From a virus: 64,000 nt of DNA. The notes below the pieces were generated by a model that saw only the letters and a list, made by a program, of their open reading frames with translations, ran no database searches and had not been told where the DNA came from. The stretch spans positions 91,524 through 155,523 of the IMG/VR virus record IMGVR_UViG_3300005573_000055, one strand, 5' to 3'. Each line of letters opens with the position of its first letter. Position 1 is the stretch's first letter. The position numbers were made by a program, and so were the translations under genes. This document shows, one piece after another, positions 2,910 to 15,077 of the stretch.

Positions 2910-3320
2910 TCAGAAGGGAAGGTCGTCCGGAAGCCCGACTCCCTCTACCTCTGCCAATTTGTCAGACAAAACCTGACTTTCTGTCATACCAGCTTCCTCT
3001 GTACCGTTGCCATTACCTCTCAGGATGTTTATCTGAGTAGCAAGAACGTCGTAATAAGCTACCTGAGTGTCTTTATTATAGGAAGAGCGAAGTTTCCCGA
3101 CGATTAAGACCTTCTGTCCTTTCTTGAAGGAATTGGCTTTGTCGTCGAAGTTAGTGAAATAGGAAATATTGTGCCAGGTAGTATGCTTTGTCAGGCCGTT
3201 TCTGCCGTTGTAAAACTCGTCGTTGGCTAGTTTGAAGGCAACGAACTTTCGGCCATTTTCAGAATTGCGGATGATAGGATCACTGCCAATATTTCCTTCG
3301 AGAATTACTAAGTTAATCAT
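2910..3320 (-). CDS. ssb: single-stranded DNA-binding protein
   Basis: MINLVILEGNIGSDP, TWHNI, KKGQKVLIVGKL, acidic tail DDLPF. Confidence 0.93.
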   Translation of the reverse strand: MINLVILEGNIGSDPIIRNSENGRKFVAFKLANDEFYNGRNGLTKHTTWHNISYFTNFDDKANSFKKGQKVLIVGKLRSSYNKDTQVAYYDVLATQINILRGNGNGTEEAGMTESQVLSDKLAEVEGVGLPDDLPF

Positions 3321-3613
3321 GCTATTTCCTCCGATGTTTGTTTGAGTGTTAACTTTTTGGATTTGTAGAGATTGTCAAGAACAGTCTTAGAGACGTTTAA
3401 TTCTCTGATGGTAAGCCCATTGCGGACGACTAGGGATATTTTCCCGAGCAAAGAGGATATAGTTTGTATATCTTTCTGGCTGCAGGAGCTTCCATCTAAT
3501 TTTTGCGGGCGAAGGACATACATTGTTCCTTCTTTGCGGGAATCAAATTTCCTCACAATCTGGAACATGATGTCCTTCTTCTTACTCTTTGGAACTAAGT
3601 AGTACATTGTCAC
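3317..3613 (-). CDS. hypothetical protein
   Basis: AAGGAGG RBS; ATGA overlap with ssb. Confidence 0.7.
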   Translation of the reverse strand: MTMYYLVPKSKKKDIMFQIVRKFDSRKEGTMYVLRPQKLDGSSCSQKDIQTISSLLGKISLVVRNGLTIRELNVSKTVLDNLYKSKKLTLKQTSEEIA

Positions 3614-7637: not shown

Positions 7638-8564
7638 TTAGTTTATAATCTCTTCTGAGAGGACGGTTTCTCTCTCTAAGCAGTGTGAAACCTCTTTGAA
7701 TTCGAGGATTTCACTGCTTAATTCTTTGAAACCTTCTCTTTCGAGGGGTAAATTGTGATCAGCTGTCCATTTATATCCAATCTGTGCTATCTTGGTATAG
7801 CAATAGCGACGTGAGTCAACTCTTGACTCACGGACATTATCCTCACTGTTAGAATATTTTGGAGCGTAGCTGCTCCATCTTTCAATAATTCTCTTTACTT
7901 TTCTGACATCGATGTCCAGCTCAAACTCTTTGGATTCGACTCTTCTTGACAGAAATTCCTTCTCTACCACCTCGAAGGTTGTAGTGTCTTTTACGAAGCC
8001 GCGGTATTCAGCGACTTCCTTCTCTATATTCTCCCAGACTTTTAATTTCTTTGCATTCAAGTCGACTTCGCAGTTGTAGTCGCTGCTGAAGACCTTTCCG
8101 GTTGCGACTACTCTGATGATTTTGTTGTCAATAGACATAACTCTCTTGTATGTCTCTATTTCTTTTTTGTATTTATCGGCGATTTCAACAGGCAGATCTT
8201 TCCAATAGAAGTAGTAATTCGTATGGTCTGCCTTTACTTTCCCACCGACTCTGTAATATTTGATGTATGAAACCCCCTCTAGTATTCTTACATATCCATT
8301 AGAATAATAGTGCTCTTTGATTTGAGGGGCCGGCAATTCGGGAAGGATCAAGCGAAATACTCCCTTGAACATAGGTTTCCCTTTGCGGTCAACCTTGTTT
8401 AAGGGAATGAGCTTTACCAGTTCGGCTTCCCAGACTTCTCCTTCTTTGGCGAGTTCTGGGTTTTCAAAGACCGGGAAGATTACCTTTCCGTCCTGAAAGA
8501 TTGGAGAGCCTGCGAGCTCTCCGAACTTATTTCTAGTTATTGTTAATTCCATTTTCATCTCCAT
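7638..8564 (-). CDS. hypothetical protein
   Basis: 308-aa ORF sharing its N-terminal domain with the downstream gene. Confidence 0.75.
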   Translation of the reverse strand: MEMKMELTITRNKFGELAGSPIFQDGKVIFPVFENPELAKEGEVWEAELVKLIPLNKVDRKGKPMFKGVFRLILPELPAPQIKEHYYSNGYVRILEGVSYIKYYRVGGKVKADHTNYYFYWKDLPVEIADKYKKEIETYKRVMSIDNKIIRVVATGKVFSSDYNCEVDLNAKKLKVWENIEKEVAEYRGFVKDTTTFEVVEKEFLSRRVESKEFELDIDVRKVKRIIERWSSYAPKYSNSEDNVRESRVDSRRYCYTKIAQIGYKWTADHNLPLEREGFKELSSEILEFKEVSHCLERETVLSEEIIN

Positions 8565-8608
8565 ATGTTAGTTCACGGTCTCGGAGTGGTAGATATCCAC
8601 TCCTTTGC

Positions 8609-8690
8609 CAATACTAATGTAGTTCGATTGACAGTGTGTGTTAATGCAGGCGTGTGTGTGTCCTGGCGGCTTTCCTTTTAGCCGCCGCGT
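8609..8690 (-). promoter_or_regulatory. repeated promoter-like module, copy 1
   Basis: Minus strand: GC hairpin (GGCGGCT-AAAAGGAA-AGCCGCC), ACACACACGC box, then AATCGAACTACATTAG upstream of 8564. Confidence 0.6.
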
Positions 8691-8720
8691 GATTGGAATT
8701 ATCCGCCAGCACATAAAAAA

Positions 8721-8945
8721 CTATTTCAGCAGATATTCCTTTTCGATCTCGTTTGTCTTCTCGTCGTAGCGGTATACCCATACTACCGCATCGTCGCTGA
8801 CAAGTCCGGATTGGATGCGCTCCTTGAGGAGCTCGTAATCTTCCTCCGTCATTAGGATGCCGGAGGCGTCGTGAATGCCACCGTCGGCGATGAAGAATAC
8901 GCCGTAAGGACGGGGATCTTGTGAAAATATTGATAGTAAGTCCAT
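8721..8945 (-). CDS. hypothetical protein
   Basis: ORF with AGGAGG RBS. Confidence 0.7.
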   Translation of the reverse strand: MDLLSIFSQDPRPYGVFFIADGGIHDASGILMTEEDYELLKERIQSGLVSDDAVVWVYRYDEKTNEIEKEYLLK

Positions 8946-8981
8946 GTTACTCCTCCTATTTTAAGTGTTGTTTATTATCAT

Positions 8982-9088
8982 CAATGCTAATGTAGTTCGA
9001 TTAATAGATGCGTGTGTGCTAATGGGAGCGTGTGTGTGTCAATGCGGGCGTGTGTGTGTCGAGGCGGCTCCCCTTTTAGCCACCGCAC
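8982..9088 (-). promoter_or_regulatory. repeated promoter-like module, copy 2
   Basis: Same hairpin, three ACACACGC boxes, AATCGAACTACATTAG upstream of 8945. Confidence 0.6.
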
Positions 9089-9117
9089 GTTCAAAATTAC
9101 CCCTTAGTGGGGTAATT

Positions 9118-9160
9118 AAAAAAAATAAATACAATATTCACCCGATGAAAGGTGAATATA
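9118..9160 (-). terminator. probable intrinsic terminator downstream of csx3 cassette
   Basis: ATATTCACC-loop-GGTGAATAT followed by TGTATTTATTTTTTT on the minus strand. Confidence 0.45.
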
Positions 9161-9250
9161 TGGAAGGCTCATCAGCCCTCCTCCTTTTGTTTGACTGCCC
9201 CACTTTCCCGGGGCTTGGGGTTTTTTAAGGTGGTTTTCTCCACCATCATT

Positions 9251-9299
9251 GCCCCCACGCCAGACTTGAACTGGCTGCTGGCCCTACCCAGGGTGGGGC
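9251..9299 (-). ncRNA. tRNA-like mini-element A (no anticodon arm)
   Basis: GCCCCAC-C-CUGG GUAGGG CCAG-CA-GCCAG UUCAAGU CUGGC-GUGGGGGC. Confidence 0.7.
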
Positions 9300-9319
9300 G
9301 GCAAGGTAGGCAGACGTGA

Positions 9320-9607
9320 CTATTTAATCACGTCGCCTACCTTGTACTCGGGGTTGTGGCTTACTGAAACCACGTATCCCCCGAGTTTGGGGTCAAAAAC
9401 TGCGATGCTGCCGACGGTGTGCGCATACTTATGTATGAGCACTGCGGCTACCGGAAGGGATGCTGGCCCGTTGACTTTTAGCAACGGGATCCCTTTAATT
9501 TCCGGGGCGTTGTCTTTTACAAACTGAACGAGTTCGGCGTTTGTTGCCGGGTCGCCGAACCCGATCGTTAATGTGTCGTTATTAAATGACATATTGAATA
9601 ATGCCAT
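9320..9607 (-). CDS. csx3: Csx3/Crn3-family cyclic oligoadenylate ring nuclease (95 aa)
   Basis: True start ATG 9607 after AAAAGGAGG; TIGFGDPATN, KVNGPASLPVAAVLIH, AVFDPKLGGYVVSVSHNPEYKVGD match the Csx3 family. Confidence 0.85.
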   Translation of the reverse strand: MALFNMSFNNDTLTIGFGDPATNAELVQFVKDNAPEIKGIPLLKVNGPASLPVAAVLIHKYAHTVGSIAVFDPKLGGYVVSVSHNPEYKVGDVIK

Positions 9608-9653
9608 GTTAACCTCCTTTTTAAAGTTATTAAATAATAATTTATGATGAATT

Positions 9654-9709
9654 TGGCTCAGGCGGGACTTGAACACCGCTCTCTCAGGCTTCCAGCAGCC
9701 ACTGAGCCA
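9654..9709 (-). ncRNA. tRNA-like mini-element B (no anticodon arm)
   Basis: GGCUCAG-U-GGCU GCUGGA AGCC-UGAGAGA-GCGG(U)G UUCAAGU CCCGC-CUGAGCC-A. Confidence 0.65.
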
Positions 9710-9711
9710 CC

Positions 9712-10080
9712 ACACAAGCTATCTTAGTAGCTCGATAGCTTGCAGTCTCGCTGATCACCCCTTCCCTTGAGCTCCGATGCTACTATCGTTGCTCAAGGTT
9801 CCGTCGGGTTTACTCAGCTACCCGAAGCCCAATTAGCGTTACCCAGGACGCGCCACGTGGAGGCTTGGGCTTTTGCGTCCCACAACATTACTGGCTAAGT
9901 GGGACAGCCAGTGTCCGTTATGTGGCTGATCCGTGGAGCATTGCACTCCGGTGAGTGGACGCCACATCGGCCTGCTGAGGCGAGGCCACACCTTGGGTCT
10001 TCGAGCCGCTTGGGCGGAATGGGTCCACGGCTCTGAGACCCATAAACCTATAAGCCAGGCTTAGCCTAGCTTATAGGCTA
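9712..10080 (-). ncRNA. putative large structured RNA 1 (~370 nt)
   Basis: No credible ORF; successive stems, H-type pseudoknot at 9877-9912, loop-loop complementarities CUCAGC/GCUGAG and AGUAGC/GCUACU. Confidence 0.6.
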
Positions 10081-10119
10081 TTCTTTATCCCCTTAAAGGG
10101 ACCACATAGACACGGCGGA

Positions 10120-10500
10120 GGTAGGTTGGTTATATGACCCGGGTTAGGTGGGGTCCGCCGCTGATACATGCGAGCAGAGCGAATGTAGACTAAGTAGGTA
10201 TAGCTCTGGCTTCCCGGGTCTGGTTGGTCTTCGCAAGGGAGTGTGTGTAGGCGGAGCGGGTACATGGAAGGTTTTAGCGACCCAGGTTAGGTGGGCACCG
10301 CCGGGTACACATGTGAGGTGGGGACGGAGCCATGGATGGTTTTAGCGACCCATGGAGGGGTGGTAGACTGGGGCGTGTGTGAGGCGGAGCGGAGGTGGGT
10401 TGATTTAGGGTCAACAGGTCAGGTTAGGTTGGCCCAGGTTGGTCAGGCTGGACAGGCCTCCGTTGGGGGCGTGTGTGAGGCGGAGCGGAGGCCTGTCTTG
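10120..10500. repeat. G-rich non-coding region with direct repeats
   Basis: GGGGCGTGTGTGAGGCGGAGCGGAGG x2 (~10370, ~10466) plus a variant at ~10240; GGTTTTAGCGACCCA x2; GGTTAGGTGGG x2. Confidence 0.75.
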
Positions 10501-10866
10501 CTAGTCTAACTCGCTCCAGTCGAAGCCGTTAATTCTAACTACCGGCTTCTTCTTTGTAATCGCTGAAGCGAGTTTCCTAGCGTTGCAATACGCTGGCCGT
10601 GCACCACAATTGACGTGCAGCACTTCGGCAACGATCTCTTTCCAGTTATTCCTCTCTTTGAGACGTTGCACGTACCAGTGCTCCACGTTGGGTCGGGTAT
10701 CTTTGATGCCACTGCCCCATTTGATCTGGATAGCATAAGCTATCCCATCAATTATGACAATGACATCAATCTTGGCCTCGTGGTCAAGGCGTTTATGTGT
10801 AATCACCTCGAATCCACTATTCCTGAGCGCATCGACAATCATGCGCTCGAGGATGAGACCATTCAT
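10501..10866 (-). CDS. PD-(D/E)XK family nuclease
   Basis: E..I...L...GF.V...LDHEAKIDVIV...AIQIK pattern. Confidence 0.65.
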   Translation of the reverse strand: MNGLILERMIVDALRNSGFEVITHKRLDHEAKIDVIVIIDGIAYAIQIKWGSGIKDTRPNVEHWYVQRLKERNNWKEIVAEVLHVNCGARPAYCNARKLASAITKKKPVVRINGFDWSELD

Positions 10867-11357
10867 AATGCCCTCCCGTTGTGGTTTAGCCAGCTACGAT
10901 CTGGCTCGGGCAGCTTCTTATAGCCCTCCTGTGGGTCGAATTGATAGATCTCTACATTGAAATGATGGAGACCTATCAACATCCCTATCAGGGCCGATAG
11001 ACCAATCGGACCGCTGAGGACTAATTTTATCTTGCAATTTTGGTTTTGTGCCATAGCACTGTAAACCTCTGTTGCAAGTTTTTTATAGTCCTCGTCGGTC
11101 ACTAACATTGGTCTACCGAGCACGAGGTTGACGTCTATCAGCGTGTCAAGTTCGCCAAAGTAGGCTTTGACAGCTTCGCTAACAGGACGTCCTACCTGCA
11201 GGGCTATAATATAGTCCTTGCCGCCTTCATTGGCATATTTTTTCTTCTTGGCAATCTTGGTCTGAGACCAGATTTTAACAGTGATTGCCAAGGAGACTAA
11301 TGCCAACAAAGGCTCGGCAATAGCCCAAGCCTGGGAGATGAATTCAAAGAGGTTCAT
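10863..11357 (-). CDS. N-terminal TM helix + SAVED/CARF-like domain protein
   Basis: Hydrophobic N-terminus; KIKLVLSGPIGLSALIG...VEIYQF....Y resembles the SAVED C-terminal half. Confidence 0.55.
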   Translation of the reverse strand: MNLFEFISQAWAIAEPLLALVSLAITVKIWSQTKIAKKKKYANEGGKDYIIALQVGRPVSEAVKAYFGELDTLIDVNLVLGRPMLVTDEDYKKLATEVYSAMAQNQNCKIKLVLSGPIGLSALIGMLIGLHHFNVEIYQFDPQEGYKKLPEPDRSWLNHNGRAL

Positions 11358-12290: not shown

Positions 12291-15029
12291 TTAATCCTCC
12301 TTTCTTAATTTAAACTTAACGCTGAAGCCAGTCGGCTTGCCAGTCTTAACACTGATGTAAGGATATACCTCGTCAACTCGGTAATATCCTTCATCAATGT
12401 TGCGGCATTCATCGCCGACTTTGAACTTCAGCTTCTGACCGCCTACTGAGATGCTAAAGGTCTTTATTTCTTTGCCATTAGCATCTCTTTCGGCGGTAAT
12501 TTCTACGAGTGAATCTCTGTGTTTTGTTCTGGCATTGATGTCCAATGCTTCGAACATTTCACAGAGATTCAGCTCGTCAGCGTATACCCGCACCTCGAAC
12601 GTTGGCAGTGCGGCATTAAAGAAGTTGCTTGTGGCAATATACCACTTCAACTCCTTGGTGCCGCCAATGCCAAGCTCGCAGAGCACCTCAAGGAGTACCT
12701 GCCATACGCCATTGATGAACAGGTATCCTTGAGATTTGCGCTTCTGCGGGTCATTGCTGGTTGCTATGTATTCGAGGACCGAATATACAACAGCCTTTTG
12801 GTCCTCTTTACATAGTGCCATGAACTGCAAAGAATACTTCTTATTAATTTCTCGTATCTTTGCAATTCTGGCATCAACGTCTCGCTTGAGCTCTTCGATT
12901 TTATTAAGAGCTGCAATTTCGCCCTTATAATCGAAGTAGCTCCTGAGTTTTCTGCCGTATTTAGCGAGACGCTCAGCAATGGCCTGCTGCTGGCGCACAC
13001 TCAGGTGCGGGTACACCTGGTCGGCAATACCAGCCTGCAGCTTGCCAAAGACCTCTTTGACAATTCCGTTCATATTTCTGACGAAATTGTCAATTATGGA
13101 GTCTTTGACAATCCGAGAATCCCCTTCCTCTCTGAAGAATCGAGGAGCAAGGAATGCAAAGCATTGAGACTGCTTGATTGCATCAATGCAAGCCTCAACC
13201 TTTACCGCCTGCTCTTCATATCCTTCAGCTGAACCCTTCTGGACTCTATCAATAATGGGTTCAAACTGGAAGGAATTCTCCTGCAGGGTCTGGTAGAGGG
13301 CCATGAGATCCTTGTCTTTGTTGCCAAAGACGAAGATCTCGACCTTTAGGGCAGCCTTAAGCATCTCAACATTGGCTGCGCGGCCAATGATGTATGCTTT
13401 GCCCGCGAAGTCTCTAACAGATTGTAATAGTTTTTCATCTTCTGTTAGAGTTGGCCCGATAGCTTTGATAGCTGTGGCGGTAAGTGTATCTACAAGACCG
13501 CTTACAGCCATGAAAGCTTTGGCCACATCTGCGGGCAGGTTGCCCTTAGGTCCGGCTGCCTGAGGAGCTTCGGCTTTAGCCTTAGCTTCCCCATCAAGAG
13601 GTGTTTCGGCAGCTGGTACCCACTCTACATTACTCCAACCAGCTTTGCGAACAATAGAATATTCGCCAAGCTGATTTGGATTTCTGTAGAGCAGATACTT
13701 GCCTCTGCCCTTCTTGATGAGGACAAAGCTATCGTCGAAATCAGGACCGCCGTGTCGGGGTTTGAGTCTGAGATACTCATCCCAGCCAACGCACACGTTG
13801 TTCTGATCGACAATAACTCTGCCTTCAGGCAGCCTTCCGAAGAATACCTTGCCATCTTCGACTTTAACGATAGATGTAAGGTATCTTCTTTTGGCCCCTG
13901 GCACGAAGACTCTGGGCCATTGGGACTCATCGGCTTTGCCGGTGCCCCATTTTGGCCCATAGAACTTCTTGCCGACCAGCCGAATAACGTCCATGACCAG
14001 AGGTCTAAAGACGCTCCAGTCTACTCCGGCTTTGATGAACTCTTTGAGTCTCCACCCGCTACTGCCAAGTGGATTGAGCTCATCTTCTTCCGGATCAACG
14101 TTGTCCGGCATTGTCTCTTCGGCATCGCCGTCGTCGATGCTGAGGATGATCTCGTTAAATTTCTCACGATCGGTGAGAGCATTAACAATATATCTCACCG
14201 TCTCACCGAGATATTTAACGAGTTTTTCGGCCCTCAGCTGACCAACTGCCAATAGATTGAGTGCAGATTGCACATCAATCATGACGTGGTCGTTGCCGTG
14301 GACCTCCTCAGCAATCGCCCAGACAACATCACGAGCTTTGACGCCGTGGTCTTTGCACCACTGAGCGTTAATGGCAAGCTCGCGTTTGATGTTGCTTTCG
14401 GCGATATAAATATCGTTAACAGGGACTTTGTTGGAAACAACAATGTGTCCCTTAACGAATTTATCACCGAGCAACATCGTGATGCTGCCTCGACGGCGAA
14501 CGCCGAGTAGCGCTGCGGCGCCGCTGCCAGCAACTACCTGGCCGTCTAAGGCTATGTAACCAGGTATATACTTAATATTAATATACTCTGGTATAGCCTT
14601 GAGGCCTTTGGCCGAAGATAGCCTCAACAGTCGGCCGATTCTCTTTCCAGCCGTCTGTTTGTTGGCATCTTCTTTGGCCTTAATCGGTAGCTGCATCAGC
14701 TTTCCAGCACTGTCAAATATTTTGACAATGTACAGATCTGTATCTTTGTGATAACAGATCGTACTATTGTCAAAATGATTTGCAATGCTGTCAAGCTGCG
14801 GCTTGGTGTCATTGCCGATAGTCGAGTGTTCAACTATCGTCAAGACCCAGCCTTCAGCAAAAGCATCTATAAATCCTGGTCTGAGATCAGGATTATAGAA
14901 CTTTTGCTGAACTGGCAGCGCTCCGATCAATTCCTTTTCGGCAGCTAAGATGGCTTGCTTGCTTTCTCCGTAGAGATAAGCAGTGAAGCCATCCTGATAG
15001 TTGCCGATTAGGAATGCCTTAACTGTCAT
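12291..15029 (-). CDS. large hypothetical protein, candidate divergent two-barrel nucleotidyl polymerase
   Basis: Start at ATG 15029 after AAGGAGG; HGGPDFDD followed by YRNPNQLGEY. The CDS is certain, the function speculative. Confidence 0.45.
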   Translation of the reverse strand: MTVKAFLIGNYQDGFTAYLYGESKQAILAAEKELIGALPVQQKFYNPDLRPGFIDAFAEGWVLTIVEHSTIGNDTKPQLDSIANHFDNSTICYHKDTDLYIVKIFDSAGKLMQLPIKAKEDANKQTAGKRIGRLLRLSSAKGLKAIPEYINIKYIPGYIALDGQVVAGSGAAALLGVRRRGSITMLLGDKFVKGHIVVSNKVPVNDIYIAESNIKRELAINAQWCKDHGVKARDVVWAIAEEVHGNDHVMIDVQSALNLLAVGQLRAEKLVKYLGETVRYIVNALTDREKFNEIILSIDDGDAEETMPDNVDPEEDELNPLGSSGWRLKEFIKAGVDWSVFRPLVMDVIRLVGKKFYGPKWGTGKADESQWPRVFVPGAKRRYLTSIVKVEDGKVFFGRLPEGRVIVDQNNVCVGWDEYLRLKPRHGGPDFDDSFVLIKKGRGKYLLYRNPNQLGEYSIVRKAGWSNVEWVPAAETPLDGEAKAKAEAPQAAGPKGNLPADVAKAFMAVSGLVDTLTATAIKAIGPTLTEDEKLLQSVRDFAGKAYIIGRAANVEMLKAALKVEIFVFGNKDKDLMALYQTLQENSFQFEPIIDRVQKGSAEGYEEQAVKVEACIDAIKQSQCFAFLAPRFFREEGDSRIVKDSIIDNFVRNMNGIVKEVFGKLQAGIADQVYPHLSVRQQQAIAERLAKYGRKLRSYFDYKGEIAALNKIEELKRDVDARIAKIREINKKYSLQFMALCKEDQKAVVYSVLEYIATSNDPQKRKSQGYLFINGVWQVLLEVLCELGIGGTKELKWYIATSNFFNAALPTFEVRVYADELNLCEMFEALDINARTKHRDSLVEITAERDANGKEIKTFSISVGGQKLKFKVGDECRNIDEGYYRVDEVYPYISVKTGKPTGFSVKFKLRKED

Positions 15030-15077
15030 GGCAGCCTCCTTCATGCTTGCCATGCAGTTTTTGGCTTCTCTTCTATT

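Follow-up and report, generated by a model that had tools for sequence, protein, structure and literature searches.

A Csx3/Crn3-family gene of an uncultured tailed phage as a credible anti-CRISPR candidate

The 64,000-nucleotide stretch of IMG/VR virus record IMGVR_UViG_3300005573_000055 analysed in the present study (positions 91,524 to 155,523 of the record; hereafter, the window) carries a small gene of the csx3/crn3 family on its minus strand. The gene product is a true Csx3-fold protein, and we consider it likely that it is a captured Crn3-type ring nuclease of cyclic tetra-adenylate (cA4), used by the phage against the signalling of type III CRISPR systems. This reading is built on what was established directly, namely, the family and fold of the protein, its invariant residues, the viral location of the gene, the absence of cas and cyclase genes from the record, the link of the cellular relatives to type III loci, the recurrence of the gene in phages, and the purifying selection acting on it. 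In our analysis, phage Csx3 appears a credible anti-CRISPR candidate.

The phage csx3 gene and its product

The window forms the final 64 kb of a 155,523-bp record and encodes the large terminase, portal, major head protein, and tail sheath; judged by its genes, the record is that of an uncultured myovirus-like tailed phage, in which csx3 is located mid-contig with phage genes on both sides. The open reading frame (ORF), read from the sequence, begins with ATG at 9607-9605 on the minus strand and follows a Shine-Dalgarno sequence, AAAGGAGG, and an identical AAAAAGGAGG is located 5' of csx3 in a related phage contig, L099. A longer GTG-started frame (9320-9715) was considered and rejected; it crosses a tRNA-like element (element B, see below), and the N-termini of the homologues give no support to it.

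The family assignment is provided by several models. Pfam PF09620 (Cas_csx3) matched with 44.4 bits against a cut-off of 21, and two PADLOC Csx3 models gave full-length matches of 61 and 55 bits, the top one being the model of the N-terminal domain of Csx3-AAA. In a sequence search of the PDB, only Archaeoglobus fulgidus Csx3 (AfCsx3) rose above noise (E 4e-5). The AlphaFold2 (AF2) model of the phage protein had a predicted local distance difference test (pLDDT) score of 97.2, and AfCsx3 accounted for all of the top 13 Foldseek matches (TM-score 0.79), which places the Csx3 fold, a small alpha/beta domain distantly akin to CARF and STAS, in the phage protein. A PHROGs search with Csx3 and its neighbours returned no family, save for the radical-SAM and AAA proteins. 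So, the stand-alone 95-aa Csx3-family gene with a strong ribosome-binding site, noticed earlier in a preliminary description of this DNA, was confirmed by the ORF at 9320-9607, by AAAGGAGG with its 5-nt spacer, and by the family models, and the comparison with Csx3 by hidden Markov models and Foldseek, which had been suggested there as a check, came out in favour of the assignment with both the Pfam and PADLOC matches and the 13 top structural ones.

The functional residues can be read against those of AfCsx3, in which D69, R71, and the S44-G45-R46 loop make up one face that binds cA4, and H57, H60, and H80 make up the other; the H60A and D69A variants are each inactive, yet their mixture restores activity because two AfCsx3 dimers sandwich one cA4 (PMC7371418). 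Both AfCsx3 and Methanosarcina mazei Csx3 (MmCsx3) cleave cA4, in line with the preliminary description, and immunity mediated by Csx1 is alleviated in E. coli by MmCsx3; these two are also the only proteins for which Mn2+-dependent conversion of cA4 to linear A2-P has been demonstrated (PMC7371418). Conservation was judged over 120 homologues of phage Csx3, in which G47, H59, H63, D72, P73, K74, and H84 are invariant or nearly so; all of these residues are kept by the phage protein. Neither the phage protein nor any of the 120 homologues departs from AfCsx3 at the equivalents of G45, H57, D69, P70, and H80 (G45 corresponds to phage G47, H57 to H59, D69 to D72, and H80 to H84). The column that follows AfCsx3 H60 (AfCsx3 H61; phage H63) is also an invariant His in these homologues.

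The lack of cas genes or an array near csx3, noted previously for the window, holds across the full 155,523-bp record. No CRISPR array-like repeats were detected anywhere in it, and models of RAMP, Csm1, Cmr2, and SMODS, which gave matches in the control genomes, found none in the whole record. Phage csx3 itself lacks the type III association, with neither cas genes nor an array in the whole record, and the gene is therefore an anti-CRISPR candidate. A phage type III locus regulated by csx3, which the preliminary description had named as the finding that would speak against such a role, was not found within the available sequence (no array, RAMP, Cas10, or SMODS); this absence is not absolute, the completeness of the record being estimated by CheckV at 88%.

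Cellular and viral relatives of csx3

A scan of species-representative genomes (one per prokaryotic species) yielded 235 Csx3 relatives, the best 80 of which belong nearly all to filamentous cyanobacteria and share at most 53% identity with the phage protein. All ORFs located within 10 kb of these 80 genes were clustered. A WYL-domain protein was present at 62 of the 80 loci, RAMP protein clusters at 42, 27, and 24, two Cas10 clusters at 27 and 25, Cas6 at 30, and an HD_4 phosphohydrolase at 27. In cells, this Csx3 subfamily is a genuine type III accessory gene. Such embedding of the cellular relatives in type III loci (Cas10, RAMP, Cas6) fits the capture of a host off-switch, as was supposed earlier. 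The matches in PLSDB were to cyanobacterial plasmids only, including pSYSA. The cyanobacterial Csx3 proteins, both the stand-alone ones and Slr7080 (a Csx3-AAA fusion encoded on Synechocystis pSYSA), share the NGPASLP, HxxxH, DPK, and SH motifs with the phage protein; their genes form part of type III loci that comprise Cas10, RAMP, and Cas6, none of which occurs in the phage record. One more cellular homologue (52% identity) was found at 10001-10309 of contig L006/L007, beside rpsF-ssb-rpsR and tgt. It is paired with a gene for a 198-aa protein, and the same protein is encoded 3' of csx3 in cyanobacteria.

In IMG/VR, six contigs carry Csx3 relatives with 49-68% identity, and nothing similar to the cyanobacterial Cas10, RAMP, and Cas6 clusters was found in their flanks. 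The kin of the phage described here are metagenome contigs L002/L008 and L099, in which the position of csx3 is kept, after genes for an AAA ATPase, a protein of ~400 aa, and a protein of ~870 aa. In three related phages, csx3 is syntenic after the ~870-920-aa gene, with 64-68% amino-acid identity and saturated synonymous sites. A separate group of homologues (97-101 aa, 55-57% identity) is located on phage-like contigs without cas genes. An amidase and a tape-measure protein are encoded on L098; on L101, tail-like proteins are found together with a DnaC-like loader and a GH25 lysin; and L103 has many small ORFs without a family match. Among the phage copies of csx3, the proportion of nonsynonymous differences (pN) was 0.17-0.36 and that of synonymous differences (pS), mostly saturated, 0.5-0.9, which indicates purifying selection. 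In a quick tree of Csx3 (78 rows, 102 columns), the viral rows did not form one clade and most forks were unsupported; no conclusion on origin or direction of transfer was drawn from it, as the columns were too few and the resolution poor.

A further arrangement was found in phage G005 (153,952 bp, 98% complete), which encodes a 226-aa Csx3 fusion with a C-terminal extension of unrecognised fold. A DUF1874 (AcrIII-1 family) gene with the catalytic Gly-His intact is located 120 nt downstream of this Csx3 gene and is followed by a gene for an HD_4 protein of the same kind as the csx3 neighbour in the cyanobacterial type III loci. The csx3/DUF1874/HD_4 cluster of G005 (L105 683-2767 = L012 10001-12085) looks like a compact counter-defence island.

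Proposed role of phage Csx3 and competing readings

According to the mechanism that we favour, csx3 would be of cellular type III CRISPR origin and expressed alone by the phage. We infer the oligomerisation, substrate, and catalysis of phage Csx3, and its effect on immunity. If phage Csx3 works like its Archaeoglobus counterpart, it would dimerise, and two dimers would sandwich cA4, with D72, K74, and N46-G47-P48 (the Asp, the Lys, and the Gly-Pro loop) on one face and H59, H63, and H84 on the other, probably with Mn2+. Cleavage would convert cA4 to linear di-adenylates, the cA4-dependent effectors of the host type III system would not be activated upon its removal, and csx3 would therefore act as an anti-CRISPR.

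Several observations weigh against this interpretation. The match to NCBIfam TIGR02579 (42.9 bits) is below the equivalog cut-off of 55.4. The position of AfCsx3 R46 is occupied by Pro in 118 of the 120 homologues, that of R71 by Lys in all 120, and the column of the catalytic H60 is variable and non-His, with Ala in the phage protein in both single-sequence and profile alignments. The subfamily is characterised by its own motifs (NGPASLP / HxxxH / DPK), and its activity is presumed by likeness; a literature search found no assay of any subfamily member, and Synechocystis Slr7080 is called only "putative" (PMC9676260). The csx3 gene of cellular contig L006 is an orphan whose called neighbours include no cas genes, and type III may therefore not be the sole source of the Csx3 substrate. 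Just upstream of phage csx3, there is a pair of genes for a radical-SAM and a membrane-SAVED protein, and csx3 might serve such a phage-borne module. Finally, the presence of a cA4-signalling type III system in the host is presumed; the terminase relatives are distant and of mixed hosts (Moorella phage MTATph1 is the closest isolate, 33% identity), and the cyanobacterial bias of the cellular Csx3 proteins does not identify the host.

The substituted residues raise the question of whether Csx3 turns its ligand over at all. It might bind cyclic oligoadenylate (cOA) with slow or no turnover and serve as a cA4 sponge or damper, the outcome still being anti-signalling, since the Ala at the catalytic position is identical to the inactivating H60A change of AfCsx3 (PMC7371418), and both R71 and R46 are replaced as well. 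We regard this as improbable, because the substitutions occur throughout the subfamily, cyanobacterial genes next to cas10 among them, an invariant His (H63) is located one residue further on the same helix, the equivalents of AfCsx3 H57, D69, and H80 are invariant, and sponging, given how much cOA type III systems produce, has been argued to be a poor strategy (PMC13148439). As the changes at R46, H60, and R71 are not phage-specific, they are no mark of a dead copy; a phage-specific dead enzyme, suggested by the Ala at the H60 position, was ruled out, this column being non-His throughout the subfamily. The differences in ligand contacts (R46 to Pro, R71 to Lys, and also S44 to Asn in the phage protein) could also suit another substrate, such as cA3, cA6, a cyclic oligonucleotide of the CBASS (cyclic oligonucleotide-based antiphage signalling system) type, or RNA 3' tails, and Csx3 would then counter a non-cA4 defence. 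The orphan gene of L006 is consistent with this, as is genome G001 (~1 Mb, completeness not established), which carries the radical-SAM/SAVED pair and gave no match in a search for the Cas10 palm domain; moreover, the activity originally described for AfCsx3 was that of an RNA deadenylase (PMC7371418). This possibility seems to us rather unlikely, given that the subfamily is directly beside genes of the type III effector complex at the 80 cyanobacterial loci, that both assayed Csx3 proteins cleave cA4, that the affinity of AfCsx3 for an RNA oligonucleotide is ~100-fold weaker than for cA4 (PMC7371418), and that cA4 has been described as the type III signal in most common use (PMC13148439).

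The upstream gene pair permits a different interpretation, in which Csx3 is the off-switch of a phage-borne cOA-responsive module of the radical-SAM and membrane-SAVED proteins (perhaps with the small PD-(D/E)xK protein) devoted to superinfection exclusion or host manipulation, so that Csx3 limits this module and does not disarm the host. The two genes are located 1.2-2.7 kb upstream of csx3 on the same strand, and form one co-directional block with it both here and in L099 (6181-7486). In three cellular contigs (L094, L096, L097), too, the two genes form a conserved unit; a gene for a TrmB-like regulator is located at a distance of 0.9-2.1 kb in each, and the radical-SAM proteins are ~50% identical to that of the phage; no cyclase or array was found near the pair in these contigs. 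SAVED4, the type to which the SAVED protein is assigned, is the cA4-sensing domain type of CalpL (PMC12751052). However, the close relatives L002 and L008 hold csx3 in place without the pair, which is likewise absent among the called genes of the csx3-bearing phage contigs L098, L101, and L103; no cyclase (Cas10 or SMODS) was found in the phage record; and AcrIII-2, a viral SAVED protein of the same type, is a known ring nuclease anti-CRISPR. By this precedent, the SAVED gene would be a second counter-defence gene rather than an effector, and we assign only a small probability to the off-switch role. The pair may be a new cOA-linked module; for csx3, the SAVED neighbour is context only, and a shared role is putative.

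The same record holds a third gene related to cOA, a DUF1874/AcrIII-1-family gene located ~8.3 kb ahead of the window start. In alignments with STIV B116 and with a Csx1-Crn2 fusion, the product has Tyr (IGY, not IGH) at the position of catalytic His47. For SIRV1 gp29, the H47A change lowered activity by >2500-fold, but the variant was co-crystallised with cA4 and therefore still binds it (bioRxiv 10.1101/778746); from its sequence, the phage DUF1874 protein may bind cA4 without cleaving it or may have another role. The presence of three cOA-binding folds in one phage is an argument for the importance of cOA signalling to it, and also leaves room for csx3 serving a phage-borne module. An elaborate version of this idea, in which the phage-adopted radical-SAM/membrane-SAVED pair is a new cOA-sensing effector, Csx3 its off-switch, and the DUF1874 variant a buffer, so that the three would not be redundant anti-CRISPRs, all supplied from separate mRNAs through ribozyme and tRNA-like punctuation of a single long transcript, is doubtful in our opinion. 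A mere passenger, whether a recent transfer from a host without a role in the phage or an assembly chimera, might be suspected from the small size of the gene and its variable region, the content of which differs between close relatives. The mid-contig position between phage genes and the same syntenic position in three related phages, at 64-68% identity with saturated synonymous sites, make this highly improbable.

When compared with known systems, the proposed role of phage Csx3 as a captured cA4 nuclease is the same as that of AcrIII-1 (DUF1874, SIRV1 gp29; cellular form Crn2), which was the first viral ring nuclease anti-CRISPR and is also a small viral destroyer of cA4, and the AcrIII-1 and Csx3 families are each common to cells and viruses. 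As stated in the preliminary description and upheld by the literature, the fold of AcrIII-1 is unrelated to that of Csx3; the enzyme is also metal-independent (PMC7371418). AcrIII-2 (viral SAVED derived from CalpL; PDB 9R8S) is likewise a host cA4-binding module adopted by a virus, and holds cA4 in a head-to-tail sandwich between protein units, as does AfCsx3 (PMC12751052; PMC13148439). Viral Csx16 and Csx20, known from the Millard phage database, are further cellular ring nuclease families that occur also in phages (PMC12409355). AfCsx3 (AF_1864; PDB 3WZG, 3WZI, 6VJG, 6YUD) and M. mazei Csx3 are CRISPR-linked, whereas the phage gene is viral, and the phage protein differs from AfCsx3 in the substitutions discussed above, in the invariant His at AfCsx3 H61, and in its score below the NCBIfam equivalog cut-off.

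Viral ring nucleases acting against type III CRISPR are known, as is the Crn3 family; their combination appears unreported. In a survey of 28,114 phage genomes, AcrIII-1 was found in 36, Csx20 in 4, and Csx16 in 2, and Crn3 in none (PMC12409355). In the present study, tblastn of 50,697 GenBank phage records (INPHARED) and a fold search of the predicted viral structures in BFVD gave no Csx3 match, and no paper reporting a viral Csx3 was found in a literature search. Among phages, relatives of csx3 turned up in metagenomic ones alone, and this accounts for the absence of the gene from surveys of deposited phage genomes. Before AcrIII-2, only one viral ring nuclease anti-CRISPR was known (PMC12751052); the anti-CRISPR role has now been shown for two viral families, AcrIII-1 and AcrIII-2, with Csx16 and Csx20 seen in phages. 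If the proposed role is true, phage-borne Crn3 would be a further viral ring nuclease family, and phages would repeatedly capture host off-switches of cA4 signalling. The cooperative metal-dependent sandwich of Crn3 has been read as a safeguard for a cellular role, an idea that a phage Crn3 puts to the test, and csx3 is small and simple to assay. The location of csx3 within 2 kb of a SAVED gene here, and 120 nt from an AcrIII-1 gene in G005, suggests that it could help to locate counter-defence islands.

Neighbouring genes and RNA elements

The features of the region are collected in Table 1. The SAVED gene product matched Pfam SAVED with 30.7 bits (cut-off 26.2) and PADLOC SAVED4 with 66 bits; its AF2 model (pLDDT 83) gave weak fold matches to SAVED domains, including AcrIII-2. 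The radical-SAM protein matched the PADLOC pVip model with 40 bits, and its NCBIfam matches, all below the cut-offs, were weakly viperin/NrdG/MoaA-like. The 121-aa protein was considered as a SAVED-linked effector nuclease, and this was not supported: it has no match among hidden Markov models, it is missing beside the cellular radical-SAM/SAVED pairs, and its structure leads only to generic Hjc, YraN, and Mrr-like PD-(D/E)xK folds that are common in phages. The 920-aa protein had no match in Pfam, PHROGs, NCBIfam, or PADLOC.

Table 1 Features of the csx3 region and related genes of the record (window positions unless another contig is named)
Feature	Position	Strand	Remarks
csx3/crn3-family gene	9320..9607	minus	95 aa + stop codon
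Shine-Dalgarno sequence AAAGGAGG	9613..9620	minus	5-nt spacer to csx3 ATG; read from sequence
Terminator-like hairpin + T run	9134..9159	minus	~160 nt past csx3 stop; consensus scan only
tRNA-like element A	9252..9299	minus	20 nt past csx3 stop; acceptor-like stem, small hairpin, T arm
tRNA-like element B	9654..9708	minus	46 nt before csx3 start; from sequence and fold
tRNA-like element C	17553-17600	minus	third copy in window
HDV-like self-cleaving ribozyme candidate	9824..9883	minus	~217 nt upstream of csx3 start
121-aa gene	10501-10866	minus	4-nt overlap with SAVED gene stop codon; no model match
SAVED gene, 164 aa	10863..11357	minus	N-terminal membrane helix + half-SAVED (SAVED4/CalpL-type) domain
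Radical SAM enzyme gene, 283 aa	11410..12261	minus	Pfam Radical_SAM 41.8 bits
920-aa gene	12291-15053	minus	863-874 aa in relatives
DUF1874/AcrIII-1-family gene	G000:C1:82916-83194 (L104 1441-1797)	minus	48.7 bits, cut-off 26

The csx3 gene is located between two tRNA-like elements, A and B, of ~50 nt on its own strand, both with a UUCAAGU T loop and without an anticodon arm. Element B comprises an acceptor-like stem of 7 bp, a D-like hairpin of 4 bp, and the T arm with its UUCAAGU loop, a 7-nt linker taking the place of the anticodon arm; between elements A and C, there is a compensatory change in the T stem. ARAGORN found neither a tRNA nor a tmRNA (transfer-messenger RNA) in the window; the Rfam tRNA model gave no window match at the gathering score and none in 8500-10900 at E <= 10, and no Rfam family at all was matched at the gathering thresholds in the whole window. 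The flanking elements are real but are not tRNA genes. Similar elements with compensatory stem changes occur in the related phages, namely, at 1237-1284, 2960-3006, 3506-3552, and 8442-8494 of L002 and at about 260-309, 2947-3007, and 9511-9563 of L099. In L002, the homologous element 3' of csx3 has an encoded ACCA end, and in L099 the syntenic one scores 24.4 bits with the Rfam tRNA model (gathering 29), the anticodon arm being missing. The elements are a family that punctuates the intergenic gaps of the whole leftward gene block. Of the cassette between two tRNA-like elements supposed in the preliminary description, the presence of both elements stood; the elements are not specific to csx3, as they recur block-wide.

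The tRNA-like elements may be processing signals for RNase P and RNase Z. The csx3 mRNA would probably be excised from a long leftward transcript, the candidate cut sites being the upstream hepatitis delta virus (HDV)-like ribozyme and the flanking elements as possible substrates of these two enzymes. The ribozyme candidate matched Rfam RF00094 with 35.6 bits (gathering 50, E 0.007) and RF02682 with 26.6 bits. A sub-threshold HDV-like match is located syntenically upstream of csx3 at 8853-8921 of L099, with the core GCCUCCACGUGGC conserved and compensatory changes in P1. The hallmark of the theta ribozyme, a cleavage site that abuts a tRNA 3' end (PMC10879173), was not seen at 9824-9883. The number of terminator-like hairpins in the region was not above the shuffled expectation.

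Additionally, several RNA features of the relatives were recorded. A Pistol ribozyme is located at 10367-10431 of L009, a 136-kb phage contig, 40 nt past the csx3 stop (62.5 bits, gathering 34.5), and a sub-threshold twister-P1 match was found at 11358-11409 of L002. An Rfam tmRNA match at 11627-11761 of L099 (63.9 bits, gathering 47) is only 135 nt long and therefore is probably another tRNA-like domain, not a full tmRNA.

In the phage described here, ~780 nt of GC-rich non-coding DNA (9716-10500, minus strand) with repeated units separate the 121-aa gene from element B. Neither this stretch nor the repeats at 9002-9070 matched any Rfam family, except for the HDV-like match. The non-coding stretch contains a 26-nt motif in two exact copies (10370-10395 and 10466-10491) and 39-41-nt repeats at 10136-10352, to which the GTGTGTG-rich repeats at 9002-9070 are related.

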